Source: Acidobacteriota bacterium (GTDB lineage Bacteria > Acidobacteriota > UBA890 > WLXD01). Taken from it: a stretch of DNA of 64,000 nt. The stretch spans positions 5,184,001 to 5,248,000 of the forward strand of contig CBDFKD010000002.1 in assembly GCA_965248695.1 (NCBI GenBank). Reading direction: 5' to 3'. A program made the position numbers and the translations under genes. The stretch's first letter is position 1. Each line of letters opens with the position of its first letter. The notes below the pieces were generated by a model. The model was given only the letters and a program-made list of their open reading frames with translations, did not search any database and had not been told where the DNA came from. This document shows, in pieces, positions 26,244-38,499 of this stretch.

Positions 26244-27491
26244 ATGGCCTGGACGACTCCCAAGACATTCGTGGCCGGTGCCGTGCTGACGGCGGCGGAG
26301 CTGAACACGCATATGCGTGACAACCTGAACCATCTGTTCGACAGCATCGACGATGTCGGCACGCTCTTCAACATCGCCTCCAAGACGGCTGCCTACACCG
26401 CCACCACCGCCGACACGGTACTGCTGTGCGATGCCTCCTCGGGTGCCTTCACTCTCACGCTGCCGGCAGCCTCGGGCAACGCTGGGCTGTACTACCTGAT
26501 CAAGAAGATCGACTCCTCCGCCAACGCCATCACCATCGATGCCAACGGCTCAGAGACCATCGATGGGGCCACGACCTACGTGTCGGAGATGGAGGATCAA
26601 GCGGTACTGATCGTTTGCGATGGCTCCAACTGGGAGACGCTATCGCACACCGCCAACAGTCTGCTGAACGTGGTCTCCAAGACCAGCGCCTATACGGCCT
26701 CGGCCACCGTAGACCAGGTGATCTTGTGCGATGCTTCTTCGGCAGCTTTCACCCTCACGCTGCCAGCCGCTTCGAGCAACGCCGGGGTGTACCTGTACAT
26801 CAAAAAGATCGACTCCTCCGCCAACGCGGTGACGATCGATGGCAATGCCTCAGAGACCATCGATGGGGCCACCACGTTCGTGGTGAACTACGAGGATCAG
26901 GCCGTTGTCCTCGCGTGCGACGGGACCAACTGGGAGACGCTAGCGCGGACCAGCACGCCGGTCTCCGCAATGGCCTTGATCGCCGCGGCGACGCCAGCCA
27001 GCGGAACGATCTCGATGAGCTCCCTCACCACCACCGACTACGACGCGCTGTGGCTGGTGGTTACGGGTCTGGAGTCCGATACCGATCAGGATGAAGTAGA
27101 GATGCAGCTCAATGCCACCACCGCGGGCTACCACTATGCGGACGAGATCGTCAGCGAGACGACCATCGAGCAATCCTTCGGCGCCGGCAACGCCGGCTCG
27201 ATCAAGCTGCTGTCCAATAGCGTCGGGGCCCGGAGGCTGGGCAATGCCGCCGATGAGGGGGCGTTCTTTTCGGTCTGGATCGACAACGACCACCACGCCA
27301 ACGAGTTTCTGGTGTTTTACCAAGGCTCCTATGTGGACGCTGACGGCAGGCTCTGGTCCTCGCTCGGCGGCAGCGGCTGGGTGGATCTGGGCACCGCCAC
27401 CTCGATCACGCAGATTGACATCAAGGCCACCACGGGCAACCTGGATGCAGGCACAGCACGTTTGTACGGGCTCCGAAAGGCGGCGGCATGA
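26244..27491 (+). CDS. Tail fibre/receptor-binding protein with two tandem ~90-aa repeats
   Basis: MAWTTP.T..AG.VLTAA..N..RDN N-terminus; repeats at ~26378-26642 and ~26675-26942. Confidence 0.75.
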   Translation: MAWTTPKTFVAGAVLTAAELNTHMRDNLNHLFDSIDDVGTLFNIASKTAAYTATTADTVLLCDASSGAFTLTLPAASGNAGLYYLIKKIDSSANAITIDANGSETIDGATTYVSEMEDQAVLIVCDGSNWETLSHTANSLLNVVSKTSAYTASATVDQVILCDASSAAFTLTLPAASSNAGVYLYIKKIDSSANAVTIDGNASETIDGATTFVVNYEDQAVVLACDGTNWETLARTSTPVSAMALIAAATPASGTISMSSLTTTDYDALWLVVTGLESDTDQDEVEMQLNATTAGYHYADEIVSETTIEQSFGAGNAGSIKLLSNSVGARRLGNAADEGAFFSVWIDNDHHANEFLVFYQGSYVDADGRLWSSLGGSGWVDLGTATSITQIDIKATTGNLDAGTARLYGLRKAAA

Positions 27492-27916
27492 ACTACAAGC
27501 TCCTGGTGCGGGATGAGGACGGAGAGATCCTGGCCTCAAGGCGCGCACCGAAACAGCCGGATGGCTCCTATGAAGGGCAGCCCCTGGACTACGTCGCGCC
27601 CAACGATCCGAAGGCCGTGCGCTACGGCATCGACGAGGTTGTGGCCACGGACGTGTGGACGGGCTCCGGCGCCCTGCGCTCCGGCTACTCGGTGGTTGTG
27701 ATCGACTCCGCAGTGCACCCGAAGATGACAGCGCACAAGGTGCTGGAGGGGCAGCTGGTGGACAAGAGTGCCTCGGAGCGGGAGGCTTCGGAGCGGGCCT
27801 CCAAGCCGGCCGAGGAGCGCCGGCGCGAGGATGCGCTCGCGTGGCTGGCAGAAAACCCCGATGCGTTGGTGCCCGCCTCACGAGTGTTGCAGTTGATGGG
27901 GCAGGCGGATGCATGA
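27488..27916 (+). CDS. Hypothetical protein (possible fibre chaperone)
   Basis: ATGA-coupled to the fibre gene. Confidence 0.55.
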   Translation: MNYKLLVRDEDGEILASRRAPKQPDGSYEGQPLDYVAPNDPKAVRYGIDEVVATDVWTGSGALRSGYSVVVIDSAVHPKMTAHKVLEGQLVDKSASEREASERASKPAEERRREDALAWLAENPDALVPASRVLQLMGQADA

Positions 27917-28130
27917 GGGGGTCGCGCAGCTGGACTACGAGGCTCTGGAGCGGCTGTATTGGCAGCTACCGGAGCCGATGCGGAGCCAGTTTCAGCAGCA
28001 ACCGTGCATCCAGAAGGTACGGTGCCCACAGTGCCAGAGTCGACTGCTTGATCTACGAGGTAGCATCGCGCACATTAAGTGCAGGTGCGGCAAGGTCCAC
28101 AAGCTGGGCCGGCTGAGCCTGACAATCTAA
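27909..28130 (+). CDS. Com-family zinc-finger regulator
   Basis: VRCPQCQSRLL...IKCRCGKV pattern resembles Mu Com. Confidence 0.7.
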   Translation: MHEGVAQLDYEALERLYWQLPEPMRSQFQQQPCIQKVRCPQCQSRLLDLRGSIAHIKCRCGKVHKLGRLSLTI

Positions 28131-28174
28131 GAGCCCCGAGAGGGCCTAAAACCTAACCGAGACCCGAGAGGTCC
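28131..28174 (+). promoter_or_regulatory. Twin RNA hairpins GA-GNCC-CGAGA-GGNC-C
   Basis: 28131-28146 and 28159-28174, with a compensatory C-G to A-T change. Confidence 0.65.
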
Positions 28175-28198
28175 AGGCGTATTCGCCTGGGCCTTTTT
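28169..28198 (+). terminator. Intrinsic terminator upstream of the lysis cluster
   Basis: AGGTCCAGGCG-TATT-CGCCTGGGCCT then TTTT. Confidence 0.8.
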
Positions 28199-28214
28199 GT
28201 ATGCAGAGACTCCG

Positions 28215-29249
28215 ATGACGAGCAACATGAATCGCCGGCAGCTGCTCAAGAGGGGCGGCGCCAGCAGCGCGCTGCTGGGCGTGGGCGACCTTTCCCCGCT
28301 GCTGGCCCCACGCATACTCGTGGGTCCCTTCGTACAGGAACTGCTCACGTACCGGCGCGCCACCCAGCTGCGACTCGTGCGTCAGGCCCAAGAGCTCGGT
28401 CTGGATGCCCTCGGCTTTTGCCTGTGGCCCATCGTGCCGGGGGGCGTGGAGATAATCCGCTACCCGGTGCCGTATGCCGGCTACGACCTGTCCCGGCCCA
28501 CGGTGCCGTACCAGCGACGCCTGCACGAGACCGTGAGTGCCTCGGTGGCGGCCGGCATCCGGCCCTACGTCTACGGGCCGATGTTCCCGGACCTACGCCG
28601 TTACCACCCGATGTTCGAGCGCATGAGGTTCGGTGGCCGCGGCATCCGTGCGGCGGACTGGGCCACTTGGAGCCCGCTGGCGCACGATGCCTGGAGCCAT
28701 TTCCTGTTGCGCATCCACGCCGAGTACGGCGACGCGGTGGCCTACGTGGACGGTGTGGAGCCATTCACGCGCTACCTGCCGCCGCCCCCGAACCACTTCA
28801 CGGCTCAGATGAGGCAGGCGCTCCCGGGCATCCTGTCGGCGGGCATCCACGAGCGTCACTTTAACCCCGGCGACTCCGACATCCCGCATGCCCGCGTCGT
28901 GGCTTCCGACGGCTGGGGCCGCAGCACGCGGCGCTGGCACTGGGGCCGCCCGACAACAGGGACGGGTCCCGTCCGCCGGCCCTTGGCGGCGCTGCCCCCG
29001 GGTAAGGCATCCGACCAGCGAACCGCTGAGGGCCAGGTGGCCTCCTACTTTCGTGGCGCTGCCGATACGGCCCAGGCGCAGGGCGCCGAGGCGTTCCTGG
29101 TGCTGCACACCCCTGGCTGGGTGGTGTCCTCGGAAAAGGAGGCCAAGGCGCAGGCCAACGACCCGGACCACTACCAGGGTCACCCGGCGGTGGCGAGTCT
29201 GCATGCACCGCCCTTCGGGGCCATCTATCAACAGCTGGCGGCGGCATGA
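28215..29249 (+). CDS. Hypothetical protein with Tat-like N-terminus
   Basis: MNRRQLLK motif; long ORF coupled to the next gene. Confidence 0.6.
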   Translation: MTSNMNRRQLLKRGGASSALLGVGDLSPLLAPRILVGPFVQELLTYRRATQLRLVRQAQELGLDALGFCLWPIVPGGVEIIRYPVPYAGYDLSRPTVPYQRRLHETVSASVAAGIRPYVYGPMFPDLRRYHPMFERMRFGGRGIRAADWATWSPLAHDAWSHFLLRIHAEYGDAVAYVDGVEPFTRYLPPPPNHFTAQMRQALPGILSAGIHERHFNPGDSDIPHARVVASDGWGRSTRRWHWGRPTTGTGPVRRPLAALPPGKASDQRTAEGQVASYFRGAADTAQAQGAEAFLVLHTPGWVVSSEKEAKAQANDPDHYQGHPAVASLHAPPFGAIYQQLAAA

Positions 29250-29554
29250 GCGAGGAGCGGCTAGCGCGCATCGAGACGGCCGTGGCGCGCACGGAAGCCA
29301 ACGTGGCTGCCCTCAAAGGGGATGTCGAAACGCTCAATGAACGGCTGTGGAGGGGCAACGGCGGCAAGAGCCTCATGGTTCGCATAGAGCTGCTTGAGCA
29401 AACCCAGGTGACCACGGAGCACATCGAGCAGTTAGAAGCAGATCGAGAGAAACGAGAGGCAGCTCGCCGCTGGCACATCCGACACCTATGGGCCGCCATC
29501 GGAGCCGTGGTGGCCACCATCGTAGCCGGCTGGATCTTCGGAGGAGGGAGTTGA
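29246..29554 (+). CDS. Coiled-coil protein with C-terminal TM segment (holin/XhlA-like)
   Basis: EERLARIE heptads and a hydrophobic tail. Confidence 0.6.
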   Translation: MSEERLARIETAVARTEANVAALKGDVETLNERLWRGNGGKSLMVRIELLEQTQVTTEHIEQLEADREKREAARRWHIRHLWAAIGAVVATIVAGWIFGGGS

Positions 29555-29757
29555 TGAGCAAATTTTCGTTGTCTCAACGTGTAATGAAGCATCTGGGCCC
29601 GTGGCAGCGCGCGCAGTCGCTCGCAGTGCGGATCGCTAAGGCGGTGGTGCTGGTGTGCCTAGCGTTCGGCGTGGTGTTCGCCGGGTTTTTCGGCAAGGTG
29701 CTGATCGTCGTCGTGCTGCTCGGCTGGGCGGCGCTGGCGGTGCTGGTGGGGCTATGA
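29554..29757 (+). CDS. Small two-TM membrane protein
   Basis: Two hydrophobic stretches; TGATG-coupled. Confidence 0.5.
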   Translation: MSKFSLSQRVMKHLGPWQRAQSLAVRIAKAVVLVCLAFGVVFAGFFGKVLIVVVLLGWAALAVLVGL

Positions 29758-29788
29758 GACTCGCCGGCCTGCTCGCCTGGGGGCTGCC

Positions 29789-30145
29789 ATGAGCGACGAC
29801 AAGCGCCTGATTGCCGTGTTGGGAGGGCTAACAGGCGTCGGTGTCCTGCTGCTACTGCTGGGGCTGGCCTCCGAGGTCCGCACGGCGACCGGTGTCTCAC
29901 CCACGAATCTGGGGCTCGTGCTACAGGCATTCGGCAAACGCCTTCTGGCCGTGACGCTTGGCCTGGGGGTGCACCAGGTGATCGACCGCGCCTTCCTGCC
30001 GTTCCTGCGCATTGAGCAGGCCTTTCGCCGGGAGGGCAAGTTCTCCACCGATGCCATGAGCAATGAGGAGCGCATGGTGTGGGTCGCCGGTTGGTTCTTG
30101 ACCTTGGCGGTCATCGTCCTCGCCTTCGCCTCGGCGGCGAGCTAA
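29789..30145 (+). CDS. Putative holin (three TM segments)
   Basis: Three hydrophobic segments directly upstream of the endolysin. Confidence 0.6.
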   Translation: MSDDKRLIAVLGGLTGVGVLLLLLGLASEVRTATGVSPTNLGLVLQAFGKRLLAVTLGLGVHQVIDRAFLPFLRIEQAFRREGKFSTDAMSNEERMVWVAGWFLTLAVIVLAFASAAS

Positions 30146-30663
30146 TGGCCGGCGCGATCCAGGTCACAGCCGCGCTGTTGGCGGTGTTCTATGGCGAGCT
30201 CGCCGGCGCGGGGTTGCCACTCGATCCGTTCGAGTCGCGGTTTCGGGCGCAGATCCAAGTGGAGTCGGCTTGGCGGCCCGAGGCGCGCTCCAAGTACGCC
30301 GCCGGACTCGCACAGTTCACCCCTGCCACGTGGAGCGACATCGCGCCGTACACCGAGCCCTCGTGCGCTGGCGCCCCCGAGACTGACCCGGCCTGCTCGA
30401 TCCGCTCGCAGATCGTGTACATGCGCCGACTATTGATCCGATACAGCGACTCGGCGACCCCGGAGGACCAGTGGGCGTTTGCCTCGGCTGCCTACAACGG
30501 CGGTCCTGGATGGATCAGCCGCGAGAAGGCGCGGTGTGCGGCGGCTCCAGACTGCGAGCCGCGCCGCTGGTGGGGCCACGTCGAGCTGCACTGTTTACGC
30601 GCCGCGTGGGCGTGCCGTGAAAACCGCGCCTACCCGCGCAAAATCGTCGCGCGGCTGCCGTAG
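30145..30663 (+). CDS. Endolysin, SLT-type lytic transglycosylase
   Basis: QIQVESAW, AAGLAQF.PATW, AAYNGGPG; hydrophobic N-terminus. Confidence 0.9.
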   Translation: MAGAIQVTAALLAVFYGELAGAGLPLDPFESRFRAQIQVESAWRPEARSKYAAGLAQFTPATWSDIAPYTEPSCAGAPETDPACSIRSQIVYMRRLLIRYSDSATPEDQWAFASAAYNGGPGWISREKARCAAAPDCEPRRWWGHVELHCLRAAWACRENRAYPRKIVARLP

Positions 30664-30670
30664 CGAAAGC

Positions 30671-31360
30671 ATGAGACTCCGCACTGCCATTCTCCTCATC
30701 GCCCTCGCCACCCTCGTGGGCTTCGGTGCCGGATGGTGGCACTTCGCACCCTCGCTGCTGTCGCCTGAGGGGCTGGTCGGGCTGGCCTCGGGGCTGCTGG
30801 ATCAGCAGCGCCGCGAGTCGCTGGCCCAGTACGAGGCGATGCAGGCGACCCACGCGGCCGAGATCGCCGCCTATGAAGCCGACCTCTCCGCTACAGAACG
30901 AGCGCTCGGCCAGCTGGGTCTCCGACTCGCCGAGCGCGATGCAGAGGCGGTCGAGGCGGAGCAGGCCCTTGGCCGCACTCTCCAGCTGGCGGCACAGCGC
31001 GAGGCGCAGCTGCGCGATGAGATCTTGGCGGCCGTCCCCGGGCTCGAGGTGCCCCTGGAGGAGCTACAGGCACAGCACCGCGGCGTGGTGAAGGGGTTCG
31101 AGCTACGGGTCAAGGCGCTGCAGCAGAGCGTCGAGACTCGTGACCAGCTGATCGTGAACCTGCGACAGCAGCTGGGTACCACTCGCCAGCTATACGAGAC
31201 AACGCAAGCGCGGCTCGACCTGGCGGAGGCGCGGCGCAAGAGCCTCGAAGGACGGCGCGTGCGGCTAGCTCCAGCGCTGCTGATCGGCGGGATACGCGAC
31301 CTGAGCGGCACAGACGGCTGGAGGGCTGGCGTCGCCGTCGGGATTGCGATCACCTGGTAG
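30671..31360 (+). CDS. Spanin-like protein (N-terminal TM, coiled coil, C-terminal beta strand ending in Trp)
   Basis: Last gene of the lysis cluster; heptad repeats; ends GVAVGIAITW. Confidence 0.6.
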   Translation: MRLRTAILLIALATLVGFGAGWWHFAPSLLSPEGLVGLASGLLDQQRRESLAQYEAMQATHAAEIAAYEADLSATERALGQLGLRLAERDAEAVEAEQALGRTLQLAAQREAQLRDEILAAVPGLEVPLEELQAQHRGVVKGFELRVKALQQSVETRDQLIVNLRQQLGTTRQLYETTQARLDLAEARRKSLEGRRVRLAPALLIGGIRDLSGTDGWRAGVAVGIAITW

Positions 31361-33161: not shown

Positions 33162-33610
33162 GGAGAAGATGGGCGTTGACGGTACCTTATCACGATACTG
33201 TGATGCTGCGAGTTGACGGCGCTTTCGGCGACTCACCTGGCGGGCAGCGATTATCACGGGCCATCCGGCGGGTATCGGGCGCACCCCCCAGTTCCTCCCC
33301 CACCGTAGAAAACACCGTGCGGCCCTTCGAAAAGGCCGCCCGGCGCTTGCGGGCACGTCGAAGCCCCTCAGCTTCGCGCGGCGGGAAAGATAGCACGCGA
33401 GAAGATCGCCGGCACTTCAGCTGCCTGCCAGCAGATGCGGCGCCAGGCATGGCACAGGTGCTCGCGGCCAAAAAGCGGTCTTGATGAGCAACCAAAAGAG
33501 CGGCCGGAGGAGGTATCGTAGCGAACGTACCGTTCCGACCGCTCTTTCGTTCTTCGTGTACCGGGTGGTGGTGGGCTGGTGCCGGCTCCGGGCTTCCTAT
33601 CTACGGGTCA

Positions 33611-33635
33611 CGGGTTCGATCCCCGCCACCTCCAC
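33611..33635 (+). other. Fragment resembling a tmRNA/tRNA 3' end
   Basis: CGGGTTCGATCCCCGCCACCTCCAC; no matching 5' half found. Confidence 0.5.
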
Positions 33636-34251: not shown

Positions 34252-34551
34252 TTACCCCAACACCACTAGAGTATCGATCGTTGTCCCTAGCGCTCTAGCA
34301 ATGCGGGACAGCGCGGCTGTAGAGCCGGGCTTGAGCCCACGTTCGATCTCAGACAGATATCCTGTAGCGATGCCCGTCTTGGCGGTGAGGTCGCGCACTG
34401 TGATGCCGTAGTGGGCGCGGAATGCAACGATTGGGCGTTCACCCTCCATAATGGCAAGTGCCACCTCGTGCGGGATACGGCTCCCATCATCTGCCTCGAG
34501 TGCGGCTAACCGATCCTCAAGTTCTTCCTTGCTGGCAACAAGGGCATCGTG
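34252..34551 (-). pseudogene. 5'-truncated XRE HTH antitoxin
   Basis: EELEDRLAA...IPHEVALAIMEGERPI.AFR...GYLSEIERG; in-frame TAA just upstream and no start codon for the N-terminal part. Confidence 0.65.
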
Positions 34552-34722: not shown

Positions 34723-34807
34723 GCCATCGTGGCGAAATCGGCAAACGCACCCGGTTTGCGACCGGGCGGCTGTCTAGGCCTTGTGGGTTCGAGTCCCACC
34801 GATGGCA
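34723..34807 (+). tRNA. tRNA with TGC (Ala) anticodon on a Leu-type body
   Basis: Acceptor GCCATCG/CGATGGC, D-arm GCG/CGC, anticodon stem CCCGG/CCGGG with loop TTTGCGA, long variable arm, T-arm GTGGG-TTCGAGT-CCCAC, A73. Confidence 0.9.
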
Positions 34808-34879
34808 CCTAAAGTACCTCCAGCAGCATCGAACCGTAGCCGCCGTGCCGCCACGATGGCGAATGTTACTTGTAACAGT

Positions 34880-35577: not shown

Positions 35578-35788
35578 CGGCAACTAATGCAGATCCGAAT
35601 CCGAAAATGAGAGCAAACCGCAACAGCGATCGCGTCGGCTGCGAGAATGCCCCCGGCAAACGGGTGCTGTCCTAATTTGAACTGCTCGAAGTTTATGAGT
35701 GATTTACAACGATTTATATCATGCAGGATGGACTCTCCCTTAACTTACTTTATACTTTCACTTAAATCGTATTGACGGGAGAGAGACT

Positions 35789-36391
35789 ATGGTTCTAGGC
35801 TCTGACAGGTTGTGGGAAACGGCGTTTAGGGGACTCATGGACCCGAAATTGCTTGTCGAAAGGTACCAGTACTTATCCAGGAAGCGACGCGAGATCGAGG
35901 GGAAGATGGCGGCCCTGGCGGAAATGCAGCAAGTCTTAGGGGTGGAATTGGACGACGTAAACGACCAGCGCGCCATGCTTTGGCTTCAGCTCGATCGACA
36001 GGCTCTGCTTGATCGTGACGATATCCGCGAGTATCTCGGTGACGCCACGAAGCCGCCTGGCATCAAGCGCGTGCGTGCCGAACAGGTAGACCGAGACTTG
36101 ATGAGATACCTGGCCAATCAAGATGGTCGGGAATGGCGCGTCCGGGACATCCTCACGCACAAGAACGCCATGCGGCTCGGCCATATGTCTGATAGCGGTG
36201 TTCGGGCGGCGATTAACCGCGCCATCGAGCGCGGCGAACTGGAGAAGACTGGCGGATGGGGGATCGTTCGCGTATCGGACCGAGGTAAGGAGTCTTACGG
36301 TCTTGATGCCGAGGCTGACTTGGAAGAACAAGACATGGACCTGGCCGAGAAAGAGGCCATGGAAAAGGAGAAGGCTAGGCCACCGTTCTGA
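35789..36391 (+). CDS. Hypothetical protein (possible winged-helix C-terminal domain)
   Basis: 200-aa ORF after an AT-rich promoter-like region. Confidence 0.6.
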   Translation: MVLGSDRLWETAFRGLMDPKLLVERYQYLSRKRREIEGKMAALAEMQQVLGVELDDVNDQRAMLWLQLDRQALLDRDDIREYLGDATKPPGIKRVRAEQVDRDLMRYLANQDGREWRVRDILTHKNAMRLGHMSDSGVRAAINRAIERGELEKTGGWGIVRVSDRGKESYGLDAEADLEEQDMDLAEKEAMEKEKARPPF

Positions 36392-36442
36392 ACAAAGAGC
36401 CCGCCGCTGCGGTAACAGCGACGGGCTCCGACAACTTGTGAT

Positions 36443-36517
36443 GGCCTCGTGGACAACAGACGGTCAAGTCGCGGGACTGGAAATCCCGAGATCCCGGTTC
36501 GACACCGGGCGGGGCCT
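36443..36517 (+). tRNA. tRNA with GGA (Ser) anticodon on a Cys-type body
   Basis: Acceptor GGCCTCG/CGGGGCC, anticodon stem CGGGA/TCCCG with loop CTGGAAA, 4-nt variable loop, T-arm CCCGG-TTCGACA-CCGGG, T73. Confidence 0.85.
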
Positions 36518-36748
36518 CACCTTTCTCCCCTGACAGCAAGGAGGGTCAGATGATAGCGCGAGCACCACCGTCAGCGCATCCCTGAACGCCGAAGGGGCCG
36601 GGGTGCGTCTCACGATGCTCCCCGGCCACCTATAAGTCGCCCGGCCCGCTGCACGAACAGCGAACCGGGCTAGATCCAAGACGCGGGCATAGGCCGCATC
36701 GGACCCTCACAGCCATTGTGGTCCTGCCCGCCATCCGGAGCAAGACCG

Positions 36749-37585
36749 ATGGCGAACGTACTGGCCCCCGAGAAGAAGCGCATGATCATCGCCGCCCTGG
36801 TGGAGGGCAACAGCATCCGCAGCATCGAGCGCATGACCGGCTGTCACCGAGACACGATCTGCCGGCTGCTCGTGCGGGTAGGTGAAGGCTGCGAAGCCAT
36901 GATGCGCGAGCGGTTCACCGGTTTGCGCCTTGACGATCTCCAGGTCGATGAAATCTGGACCTACGTCCAGAAGAAGCAGGCCACGGTGATCAGGTCCGGC
37001 AAGCGCGTGAATCCCAAGCATGGTGATCAATGGGTTTTCGTCGCGCTCGATGCCGAAACGAAGTTGGTGCCGCATTGGATCGTCGGCAAGCGCGACGGCT
37101 ACAACTCCTACCAGATGATCTCGGAGCTGGCCCGTAGGATCGACGGGCCGTTCCAACTGACCACGGACGCTTTCGCTGGCTACAAGGCCGCTCTCGGAGT
37201 CGTGGCGGCTCGTGGTATCGACTACGCACAGCAGACCAAGAGCTATACGGCCACGAATCCATCCTTCGGACGTTACTCACCACCAAGGGTCAGCCACTGC
37301 ACAACTCAGGTTGTGGCCGGAGATCCAGATCCGGAGGCGATCTCCACGAGCTACGTCGAGCGTCAGAACCTGACCATGCGGATGAGTATGCGACGGTTCA
37401 CCCGGCTGACGAACGGCTTCTCAAAGTCGCTGCGCAACCTGGAAGCCGCTGTGTCGCTGCACTTCGCCTGGTACAACTTCGTGCGGATTCACGACAGCCT
37501 GCGGAGCACGCCGGCCGTTGTGGCCGAAGTAGTTAGTACCGAGTTGGCGATGGACGACCTGCTGGCCTTCGAGGCGGGCTACTAA
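36749..37585 (+). CDS. IS1-family DDE transposase
   Basis: LVEGNSIRSIERMTG, QVDEIWTYV.KK, TTDAF, YVERQNLTMRM.MRRFTRLTNGFSK, YNFVRIH. Confidence 0.9.
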   Translation: MANVLAPEKKRMIIAALVEGNSIRSIERMTGCHRDTICRLLVRVGEGCEAMMRERFTGLRLDDLQVDEIWTYVQKKQATVIRSGKRVNPKHGDQWVFVALDAETKLVPHWIVGKRDGYNSYQMISELARRIDGPFQLTTDAFAGYKAALGVVAARGIDYAQQTKSYTATNPSFGRYSPPRVSHCTTQVVAGDPDPEAISTSYVERQNLTMRMSMRRFTRLTNGFSKSLRNLEAAVSLHFAWYNFVRIHDSLRSTPAVVAEVVSTELAMDDLLAFEAGY

Positions 37586-37698
37586 TGCTCGGTGATTTCC
37601 ACAGGATATCCACAACGGGTGGCGCTCCTGTTGATGATGACCCCCAACATGTTGTGGTCGTGATGTTGACCACGGGACTTCCCGCAGGCTACAACAAC

Positions 37699-37729
37699 AA
37701 AGACCCGACGGGTTCACCGTCGGGCCTTT
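37699..37729. terminator. Possible bidirectional terminator hairpin
   Basis: AAAGACCCGACGG-GTTCA-CCGTCGGGCCTTT. Confidence 0.5.
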
Positions 37730-37879
37730 GACCAAACCAGTTGTCACCCGGCGTAGGCGCGCCGGGACTTTGATGCTCTGTCGGAGCATAGGCCGCTCTG
37801 ACCTTGAGCGTCAAGTCGCACCCGGTGCGTCTGTCGGGTGGCAACGCAGCGCCCGCATTATGCGGGAGGAGTAACTGCA

Positions 37880-38035
37880 ATGCCAACTACAGGCAAGACT
37901 GCCACCACGTCCGGGATCTACCGGGCCAGCGACTGCGGCTACGAAATCGCCCTCAGCCGAGGGGAACGATTTCCACCGTGTCCGATGCATCGGCGTGCTG
38001 TGACGTGGACTCTGGTGAGGGCGACGAAGCACTAA
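37880..38035 (+). CDS. Small YjzC-like zinc-ribbon protein
   Basis: GGAGGAG RBS; TG...SGIY...C...GERFPPC. Confidence 0.6.
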   Translation: MPTTGKTATTSGIYRASDCGYEIALSRGERFPPCPMHRRAVTWTLVRATKH

Positions 38036-38399
38036 CGTAGCCCGACACCGCATCACTGTTGTAACCGAAGAGGTGCCCCATTACCCAATCGGGGCACCTC
38101 TTCCTCGTCTCCAAGAGAGCTTCTAGGGCGTAGGCGTGACGATATACGCCTAGCGCCCACTGGCCGCGTTCGACCTCCAAGAGGAACCCGCTGATCGGCA
38201 GCGATAGCGAGGACAAGAGAGTCTGTAGCTCGCTGGCGAACGCGGGCAAGTCTTCGCTCGCGATGTTGCGCGCTCCGACCTCGGCAATGGGTTTACCACC
38301 CCAAGCTACCCATTCGGCATACGCCGAAATCCGGCCCGCTTCGTAGTCGGTGATCATTTTTTTGAGATCACTCCGATCCGGCGCGCTGTCGCCCTCCAT
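37953..38399 (-). CDS. Hypothetical protein
   Basis: Protein-like ORF (GKP.A, W..G.LFGY); 3' end overlaps the neighbouring gene. Confidence 0.5.
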   Translation of the reverse strand: MEGDSAPDRSDLKKMITDYEAGRISAYAEWVAWGGKPIAEVGARNIASEDLPAFASELQTLLSSLSLPISGFLLEVERGQWALGVYRHAYALEALLETRKRCPDWVMGHLFGYNSDAVSGYVSASSPSPESTSQHADASDTVEIVPLG

Positions 38400-38499
38400 T
38401 AGGCTAACAGGCACAAACGCTCCTCGAAACGGCCAGCAAAATCCGTACCAAACTGACTTTCAGTGACTTTCATAATGGGACACTACCCATACGAGATCA

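Follow-up and report, generated by a model that had tools for sequence, protein, structure and literature searches.

A short-arm tRNA with a cysteine-like acceptor end and a serine anticodon on mobile DNA of an acidobacterial genome

We describe an irregular tRNA gene at positions 36443-36517 (forward strand) of a 64,000-nucleotide (nt) stretch of an Acidobacteriota genome, hereafter the window. The gene is a class-I (7/5) tRNA that runs to the discriminator base U73, encodes no CCA, and carries the anticodon GGA (36479-36481), which reads UCC and UCU, within the loop CUGGAAA (ARAGORN, Rfam, arm parse, and fold). It is an intact elongator-type gene and represents a rare, 'irregular' class that mobile DNA carries in Acidobacteriota; very probably it is a real member of a kind of mismatched tRNA already in print, namely the 'tRNA0 (7/5, U73)' with anticodons GGA, CGC, and UGC in the supplement of Mukai et al. 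2017 (Nucleic Acids Res 45:2776; PMC5389517). Judging from sequence, the account that we tentatively favor, while giving the complete chain a little less than even weight, is that this tRNA would be weakly cysteinylated and would decode serine codons as cysteine. Natural tRNAs in which identity and anticodon disagree are rare, and each tests the fixedness of the genetic code. Those of Acidobacteria have so far been known only from short metagenome or metatranscriptome pieces, whereas here the gene lies in a near-complete genome and can be listed beside the normal tRNAs and the synthetases searched for. In that context it is seen to be an extra gene, with no paralogue of the two synthetase families searched (PF01406 and PF00587) alongside, and with a second, independent gene of the same design. 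The new results are a genome-wide inventory of tRNAs and of the searched synthetase families, the second gene of the same design on an unrelated body, the finding that the body of the window tRNA is not a simple copy of tRNA-Cys, and the neighborhood link of such tRNAs to IS1/IS1595 transposases, which points to how mismatched tRNA genes spread.

The cloverleaf was recovered by independent routes. ARAGORN, which reported three tRNA-like genes in the window, called a 76-nt tRNA with anticodon GGA at 36443-36518 on the forward strand, and the full Rfam model RF00005 matched 36443-36517 at 50.2 bits (E = 1.4e-8; gathering score 29). The acceptor stem, GGCCUCG/CGGGGCC, forms seven base pairs (bp), including G1-C72, G2-C71, C3-G70, and a single U5·G68, and is followed by U73; the D stem, GACA/AGUC, contains A13·A22 and closes an 11-nt D loop that holds GG; the anticodon stem has five pairs below a 7-nt loop with U33 and A37; the variable loop, AGAU, has 4 nt; and the T arm reads CCCGG-UUCGACA-CCGGG, with a 5-bp stem. 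All features expected of an elongator cloverleaf were present (7/5 stems, U8, A14, G18G19, U33, T54-T55-C56, and A58), and the minimum-energy fold was a cloverleaf-like four-way junction (-33.5 kcal/mol, z = -1.76). The only broken stem pair, A13·A22, is also found in 30 of 30 acidobacterial tRNA-Cys genes. An earlier, sequence-only reading of the window had listed the three terminal pairs, U73, the 4-nt variable loop, and the loop CTGGAAA, all of which ARAGORN, Rfam, and the parse bore out. It was also correct that CCA is not encoded, yet this carries no weight, as only 9 of the 59 tRNA genes of the genome printed by ARAGORN have a CCA end. The proposed pairing of leader and trailer fared less well: GUGA (36438-36441) can match UCAC (36517-36520), but the 4-bp helix needs U36442 to be left out and is at chance level. 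A reading of the antisense strand as tRNA-Gly(UCC) was dropped, because that strand lacks a T-loop and received no ARAGORN call.

The sequence-only reading had further called the body Cys-type, and this proved true of its acceptor end, not of the whole. Among 30 acidobacterial tRNA-Cys genes, G1, G2, T73, A13, A22, and the GCA anticodon were invariant and C3 was at least 90% conserved. The window tRNA has the U73 and G1-C72/G2-C71/C3-G70 of this set together with A13·A22 and lacks the GCA anticodon, although its loop CUGGAAA differs from the native tRNA-Cys loop CUGCAAA by a single base. In contrast, a covariance model built from the same kind of gene (R2, 30 acidobacterial tRNA-Cys genes) gave 47.9 bits for the window tRNA and 98.2 bits for the native tRNA-Cys, and only 37 of 57 fixed positions outside the anticodon agreed with the latter. 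Plain MAFFT identity placed tRNA-Cys first among the native tRNAs at 58%, by a small margin; a MAFFT alignment of all GGA tRNAs (A1) mis-registered the anticodon arm and was left out of the counts. The Cys-likeness of the window tRNA is thus that of the acceptor-end identity set and A13·A22, and does not extend to the whole body. Nor is the body that of a tRNA-Ser: the four native tRNA-Ser are 90-97 nt long, with long arms and 3′ ends that read ...ctccgcc, giving G73, whereas the window tRNA has a 4-nt variable loop and U73.

The genome (5.89 Mb in two contigs, C1 and C2; 65% G+C) also contains the normal tRNAs for serine and cysteine. Specifically, a native 90-nt long-arm tRNA-Ser(GGA) is encoded at C2:1072815, alongside three further long-arm tRNA-Ser genes elsewhere, and a native tRNA-Cys(GCA) at C2:5480852 adjoins cysS, the only full match to cysteinyl-tRNA synthetase (CysRS). 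Because normal tRNA-Ser(GGA) and tRNA-Cys(GCA) are present, the window tRNA is an extra and not a replacement. Searching the genome with PF01406 returned this one full CysRS and weak matches in one other frame of 578 amino acids (aa), while PF00587 returned five matches, which are the usual class-II synthetases; there was accordingly no extra CysRS or PF00587 paralogue in a search limited to these two families. No synthetase domain was found by Pfam and NCBIfam among the open reading frames (ORFs) neighboring the tRNA. Across 1,710 long ORFs, UCC and UCU together make up 12.8 per 1000 codons.

With its loop only one base from that of tRNA-Cys, the gene might be taken for an ordinary tRNA-Cys altered by a sequencing or assembly error, a suspicion that the sequence-only reading had itself raised. 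However, four runs of one sample, possibly the genome's own source, gave independently assembled contigs, and these cover the tRNA including its anticodon with zero differing letters. A look for RNA data containing this stretch listed none. The tRNA is present as two identical copies, the second of which ARAGORN placed at C1 c[1975,2050] and which is carried by a 2.56-kb duplicated segment (35932-38489) that is 99.96% identical to C1:3-2561 (blastn). Moreover, the true tRNA-Cys sits elsewhere, beside cysS, with a very different sequence. Error is therefore already refuted as far as single-sample contigs go, and we give it practically no credence. Likewise, the thought that homologues might all carry GCA, with GGA a private mutation, did not hold: GGA was found in a second, unrelated body, in nine of nine metagenome matches, and in the published tRNA0 records.

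The unrelated body belongs to another class-I GGA tRNA of the same genome, 75 nt long, at C2:2238653-2238727 (L062:4001-4075), which ARAGORN found independently of any pattern. Its D and T arms are Asp-like, with 42 of 57 fixed positions matching native tRNA-Asp, and it shares the G1G2C3...U73 end, the CUGGAAA loop, and the 4-nt variable loop with the window tRNA. We surveyed sequence collections for the pattern GGC...CUGGAAA...T-loop...GCC-U, using a stricter version for metagenome contigs; both versions exclude C33 loops and T stems without G52. One genome each of 185,579 species, among which the genome under study may not be represented, yielded 46 matches, of which four are tRNAs by ARAGORN (L016, L019, L046, and L050) and two more resemble, by eye, the 3′ halves of tRNAs. 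The metagenome contigs yielded nine matches, all of them tRNAs by ARAGORN, and the viral contigs a single one, also a tRNA by ARAGORN and by eye the same sequence as L058. Six of the nine metagenome matches form one subfamily (L053, L055, L057, L059, L060, and L061; over 3,718 nt, L055 and L060 do not differ). Among its five distinct sequences every one of the 100 stem cells pairs; 7 of 20 pairs show changes in both partners and none in one partner alone, and similarity among the loci ends within a few bases of the tRNA borders. On R2 the subfamily scored 72.6-74.7 bits, above every non-Cys tRNA of the genome under study (maximum 61.3). A model built from the subfamily (R1) matched in 61 of 61 genomes, G047 and G072 included, and its 30 best matches, the only loci fetched and none of them from those two genomes, were all tRNA-Cys(GCA). 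By these comparisons the subfamily is clearly Cys-derived; on R1 the window tRNA, at 52.6 bits, did no better than the native tRNA-Asp at 51.8. A looser pattern, admitting every anticodon except those with C in the middle, was applied to 400 other Acidobacteriota genomes (including G047 and G072, without a match); it picked up a Thr-type UGU tRNA in five genomes belonging to a single family, along with two more tRNA-like matches, whose anticodons were read by eye.

The nearest known relatives are those of Mukai et al. (PMC5389517), who report polycistrons of tRNA0, tRNA1, and tRNA2, probably acidobacterial, from forest and peat soil metatranscriptomes. In the supplementary records ('polycistronic tRNAs'), tRNA0 is accompanied by 'tRNA2, tRNALeu (7/5)' or allo-tRNAs with nonsense anticodons and by a His-like or E-loop tRNA1. 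As stated there, the His-like tRNA1 was charged by Escherichia coli HisRS and was unused at a Thr codon, neither GlyRS nor ThrRS of E. coli charged the E-loop tRNA1, and irregular tRNA genes are found close to toxin-antitoxin systems and in some cases close to transposon genes. The legend of its Figure S7 describes a tRNA0 tested with HisRS, GlyRS, and ThrRS, no CysRS test is mentioned in the text at hand, and the portion of a 2020 review at hand (PMC7609411) adds nothing on tRNA0. The window tRNA is like the tRNA0 records in its 7/5 cloverleaf, G1-G2-C3 start, U73, and non-Cys anticodon, GGA among them; by eye it also shares an A13·A22-type D stem, a 4-nt variable loop, and a UUCGAC-type T loop. 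Both accompany Leu-type or other mismatched tRNAs, and the DNA of tRNA0 is linked to toxin-antitoxin genes and transposable elements. By eye, too, the window trio of a degenerate tRNA-like piece (33564), a Leu-type UGC tRNA (34723), and the GGA/U73 tRNA resembles a scattered set of the tRNA0 type. Unlike the window tRNA, the published tRNA0 are close copies of tRNA-Cys bodies and are polycistronic with tRNA1 and tRNA2; compared by eye, the GGA-type tRNA0 as printed has C33, whereas the window tRNA has U33 and an 11-nt D loop. The window tRNA lies outside any tRNA polycistron, with its nearest tRNA-like genes ~1.6 kb (34723-34809) and 2.8 kb (33564-33635) away and ORFs between.

The Cys-derived GGA tRNAs from metagenomes (L053, L055 = L060, L057, L059, and L061) share the GGC...U73 end, CUGGAAA, A13·A22, and a D loop with a GGUC motif with the window tRNA, and three of them (L055, L057, and L061) likewise adjoin IS1/IS1595 transposases. 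In L053 a His-like GGU tRNA follows, and in L057 a 97-nt UAU tRNA. They differ in encoding CCA, in a 5-nt variable loop of the tRNA-Cys type, and in their R2 scores of 72.6-74.7 bits against 47.9. Two more distant systems invite comparison. The tRNA-ProX/ProRSx pair of Streptomyces and Kitasatospora (PMC11415595) likewise involves a bacterial tRNA that joins one identity to the anticodon of another, but has a dedicated synthetase paralogue and a function shown experimentally, while the window tRNA comes with no extra CysRS or PF00587 protein and is known from sequence alone. The allo-tRNAs and selC* tRNA-Cys (PMC5389517) resemble it in the mismatch of identity and anticodon, in their occurrence in Acidobacteria, and in their proximity to mobile DNA, yet they have 8/4 or 9/3 branches and long variable arms where the window tRNA has a 7/5 branch and a 4-nt variable loop.

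Mobile DNA surrounds the gene. G+C content is 0.54-0.62 over 32-43 kb of the window against 0.65 for the genome, and this region is a patchwork of repeats that recur elsewhere in the genome, containing several Xre-type regulators, ORFs without a family, and an IS1-family transposase around the tRNA; it is a low-GC island rich in prophage and insertion sequence (IS) DNA. The IS1-family element occupies 36629-37585 on the forward strand, its transposase beginning with the ATG at 36748 and ending at 37585 (NCBIfam NF033558, E = 2.5e-17; Pfam DDE_Tnp_IS1). Its left edge was set at 36629 because homology to a truncated copy (C2:1400778-1401122) begins there. IS1/IS1595 transposases were found in the fetched flanks, of varying length and with some contigs shorter than 2 kb, at 9 of 14 distinct class-I GGA tRNA loci (the window, C2:2238653, L050, L054, L055, L056, L057, L058, and L061, but not L016, L019, L046, L053, or L059), against 0 of 30 native tRNA-Cys loci (±1.5 kb) and 0 of 40 non-tRNA pattern matches. 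Over both control sets together the count was 0 of 70. In seven of the nine, the transposase is located 3′ of the tRNA and faces either way. Such a link for 7/5 tRNAs did not turn up in the literature searched.

How, then, might the tRNA work? The seryl-tRNA synthetase (SerRS) should not charge it because it has no long variable arm, and on this the sequence-only reading was well founded. Any charging would most likely be by the single housekeeping CysRS, with slow cysteinylation because the middle anticodon base is wrong. Weak CysRS charging is plausible given that, according to a review, the major Cys determinants are U73 and GCA and U73 alone is sufficient for the charging of minihelices by CysRS; the sequence-only reading had likewise named U73 and the GCA anticodon as what CysRS uses. 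Together with the GGC acceptor end, U73 is the most telling Cys mark of this tRNA. Once charged, the tRNA would be expected to decode UCC and UCU if EF-Tu delivers it, the loop CUGGAAA having U33, A37, and seven bases. The same seven bases form the loop of the true tRNA-Ser(GGA) of E. coli. It would then compete with tRNA-Ser(GGA) at these codons, ~1.3% of the total, and the predicted outcome, with transcription and ribosomal use themselves presumed, would be a little cysteine inserted for serine; strong expression would be costly. From the covarying family, the unrelated second gene with the same end and loop, and the published transcripts, we argue for selection on this combination.

Several results weigh against this account. 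C35, part of a major Cys determinant, is missing in GGA, and charging may be negligible. Seven native non-Cys tRNAs outscore the window tRNA on R2 (in bits, Thr 61.3, Phe 58.9, Gln 57.4, Asp 53.7, Met 52.9, Thr 52.3, and Gly 48.8), and over the 57 fixed positions the native tRNAs that it matches best are tRNA-Arg(CCU), with 38 agreements, and tRNA-Cys, with 37. The surveys required the GGA loop, so that conservation of GGA within families is partly built in, and they therefore cannot show GGA to be the sole anticodon in these families. No further GGA tRNA of this type was found with the looser pattern in the 400 other Acidobacteriota genomes, BLAST of the tRNA in 60 related genomes returned only a 44-nt partial match (G058) and no full-length relative, and a metagenome scan for relatives of the body with any anticodon gave 0 matches. 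Upstream of the gene, no -10-like element was seen within 90 nt, whereas many native tRNA genes show one by eye, and a strong hairpin (36397-36428; terminator scan, sub-threshold Rfam 'sar' match at 26.5 bits), terminator-like on the minus strand only, lies 15 nt away. Finally, related irregular tRNAs were either not charged by E. coli enzymes or charged yet unused in translation, as reported in PMC5389517.

These points bear on what else the tRNA could be. It may be made and yet serve no decoding, acting uncharged or oddly charged as a tRNA-like RNA in the service of the surrounding mobile DNA; it could, for instance, draw off as a decoy or sponge a tRNA-targeting toxin or nuclease directed at the tRNA-Ser(GGA) loop, work as a regulator, or be tied to the biology of toxin-antitoxin systems or IS. 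We regard this as rather unlikely, though deserving to be taken seriously, since published His-like tRNAs are charged but unused in E. coli and others remain uncharged, and since the authors of that work suggest links to toxin-antitoxin systems and transposable elements (PMC5389517). The transposases at 9 of 14 loci against none in either control set (0/30 and 0/40), the Panacea-domain antitoxin gene adjoining the tRNA of L057, and the several Xre-type regulators around the tRNA in the window all fit such a role, and the same loop on unrelated bodies would suit recognition of the loop itself. However, Pfam, NCBIfam, and PHROG identified no toxin or nuclease gene beside the window copy, the position and strand of the transposase vary between loci, which argues against a fixed mechanistic coupling, and the tRNA keeps all the features of ribosomal use (U33, A37, a 7-nt loop, and the T-loop consensus). 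The tRNA might instead be a silent or decaying passenger, that is, an acquired tRNA copy with an altered anticodon, carried and duplicated with IS- and prophage-rich DNA and without a function of its own. Such a passenger would explain the lack of a recognizable promoter upstream, the restriction of the tRNA to this genome among 61 searched, its location in a mosaic of repeats and IS fragments (G+C 0.54-0.62 against 0.65), its model scores below those of native tRNAs, and the broken tRNA-like relics nearby and elsewhere (33564-33635 and C2:1401818). Yet all its stems are intact where the relics have broken pairs, and the unrelated second gene with the same end and loop, the covarying family, and the published transcripts run counter to decay; we consider the passenger unlikely.

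Charging by another synthetase, ThrRS or GlyRS, with serine codons misread as threonine or another residue, seems improbable to us. Mukai et al. considered both enzymes for irregular tRNAs with U73 (PMC5389517), the three native tRNA-Thr of this genome end in U73, and GGA shares G35 with the Thr anticodon GGU, from which position 36 alone sets it apart. Against this stand the G2-C71 of the window tRNA, where the three native tRNA-Thr have C2-G71, and the E-loop irregular tRNA that E. coli GlyRS and ThrRS left uncharged (PMC5389517). The anticodon counts against both enzymes as well. ThrRS requires U36, and GlyRS requires C35 and C36. A bolder possibility, which we find doubtful, is that the GGC/U73 end and CUGGAAA have been assembled repeatedly on unrelated bodies, as a mobile device for Ser-to-Cys recoding or as an RNA exploited by transposons or phages. 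The bodies would be the Cys-like, the Asp-like, and that of the window, and the device would travel with IS1/IS1595 elements and phage DNA; in its recoding form it would join the published members with Ala anticodons in swapping near-isosteric residues, and in its RNA form it might be, for example, a landing site or a counter to tRNA-directed defence. Weak cysteinylation with Ser-to-Cys misreading is the account we retain ahead of these. The choice that the sequence-only reading offered, between a weakly cysteinylated misreader and an uncharged decoy, still frames the matter correctly.

A second mismatch of body and anticodon, which the sequence-only reading had placed ~1.7 kb from the first, is indeed present upstream, at 34723-34809 on the forward strand. 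This 87-nt class-II tRNA has a Leu-type long-arm body, A73, and the Ala anticodon UGC (ARAGORN; Rfam 58.2 bits), lacks G3:U70, and has an identical copy at C2:1586595-1586681. The suggestion that the two mismatched tRNAs share a purpose may be read as fitting what has been published on acidobacterial transcripts, in which irregular tRNAs of Cys-like, Leu-like, and other types occur together. GGU and ACC, the flanks of the Leu-type tRNA, can add 3 bp to its acceptor helix. On the opposite strand, beyond an AT-rich spacer, is an Xre-type gene (34252-34464), and an IS1595-type transposase is found ~2 kb from the second copy (L064:756-1631). Farther upstream, a degenerate 72-nt tRNA-like piece (33564-33635, forward strand) was called Arg(CCU) by ARAGORN; its 3′ part resembles the 3′ end of transfer-messenger RNA (tmRNA; Rfam 18.1 bits, sub-threshold), as judged by eye against the native tmRNA gene at C2:3148260-3148613, and the piece may be an old attachment-site scar. 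Elsewhere in the genome, a 75-nt tRNA-like gene at C2:1401818-1401892 (L063), called Ser(CGA) by ARAGORN, has an Arg/Thr-like body and a badly paired anticodon arm and is probably a relic; a truncated IS1 transposase copy lies ~700 nt from it. Additionally, two tRNA-Sec (C2:4678307 and 5559422), two tRNA-Leu(CAA) (C2:89822 and 92021), and a 'Cys(ACA)' call with the tRNA-Met whose 3′ half it repeats (C2:3177552 and 3669783) form pairs with an identical 3′ part and a different 5′ end, as is typical where islands have integrated into tRNA genes.

Closer to the window tRNA, a 200-aa ORF without a family (35789-36391, forward strand; no match in Pfam, NCBIfam, or PHROG) ends 52 nt before it. As a partner protein it found no relative beside other irregular tRNAs, and the sole promoter-like site in the scanned region (35729-35756) lies upstream of it. 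Between the tRNA and the IS end is a 14-bp hairpin without a U tract (36596-36627; inverted repeat I12). We rejected the tRNA as cargo inside the window IS1 element, because it lies ~110 nt outside the edge at 36629. For this element, an inverted-repeat script found no IS ends, a local alignment of the two IS flanks returned only a 16-nt match inside the element, and 'CTATAAG', common to two IS edges, lacked a counterpart at the opposite ends. In L050 and L058, candidate inverted repeats enclosing transposase and tRNA are weak (79-83% over 18-19 nt) and unconfirmed, and the L050 genome holds a single IS copy. The idea that the tRNA supplies cysteine at serine codons of the transposase zinc ribbon was not supported, as each Cys of the CxxC motifs seen in the transposase N-termini of L050, L057, L058, and L055 is encoded as Cys; the first 130 residues of the window transposase contain no CxxC motif pair. 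Just upstream of the island, PHROGs matches mark a baseplate-like gene (26244-27491) and an endolysin-like one (30079-30663), and the tRNA cluster may sit at the end of a prophage or phage-derived element, with PHROG matches spanning 26244-31360 of the window.

Finally, some of the other loci have features of their own. The Asp-like tRNA at C2:2238653 is flanked by a perfect 12-bp inverted repeat, 7-18 nt upstream and 8-19 nt downstream, with an IS1-family transposase ~270 nt downstream on the opposite strand. In L057 (1212-2683), a Panacea (SocA-like) antitoxin-domain gene and a small ORF precede the Cys-derived GGA tRNA, with an IS1595 transposase upstream; the 97-nt UAU tRNA begins 10 nt after the GGA tRNA and looks like the published allo-tRNA(UAU). 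An acidobacterial tRNA-like gene with a GGC...U73 end (L077, G393:C1:5052571-5052643) has a D arm that resembles that of the window tRNA; its loop reads, by eye, AGC, with GCA one base out of register, and an IS1 transposase fragment lies 25 nt away. The GGA tRNA of L050, also from Acidobacteriota, has a clear extended -10-like promoter upstream (L050:2575-2610, minus strand) and an inverted copy of it downstream, and looks like a transcription unit of its own, unlike the window copy.

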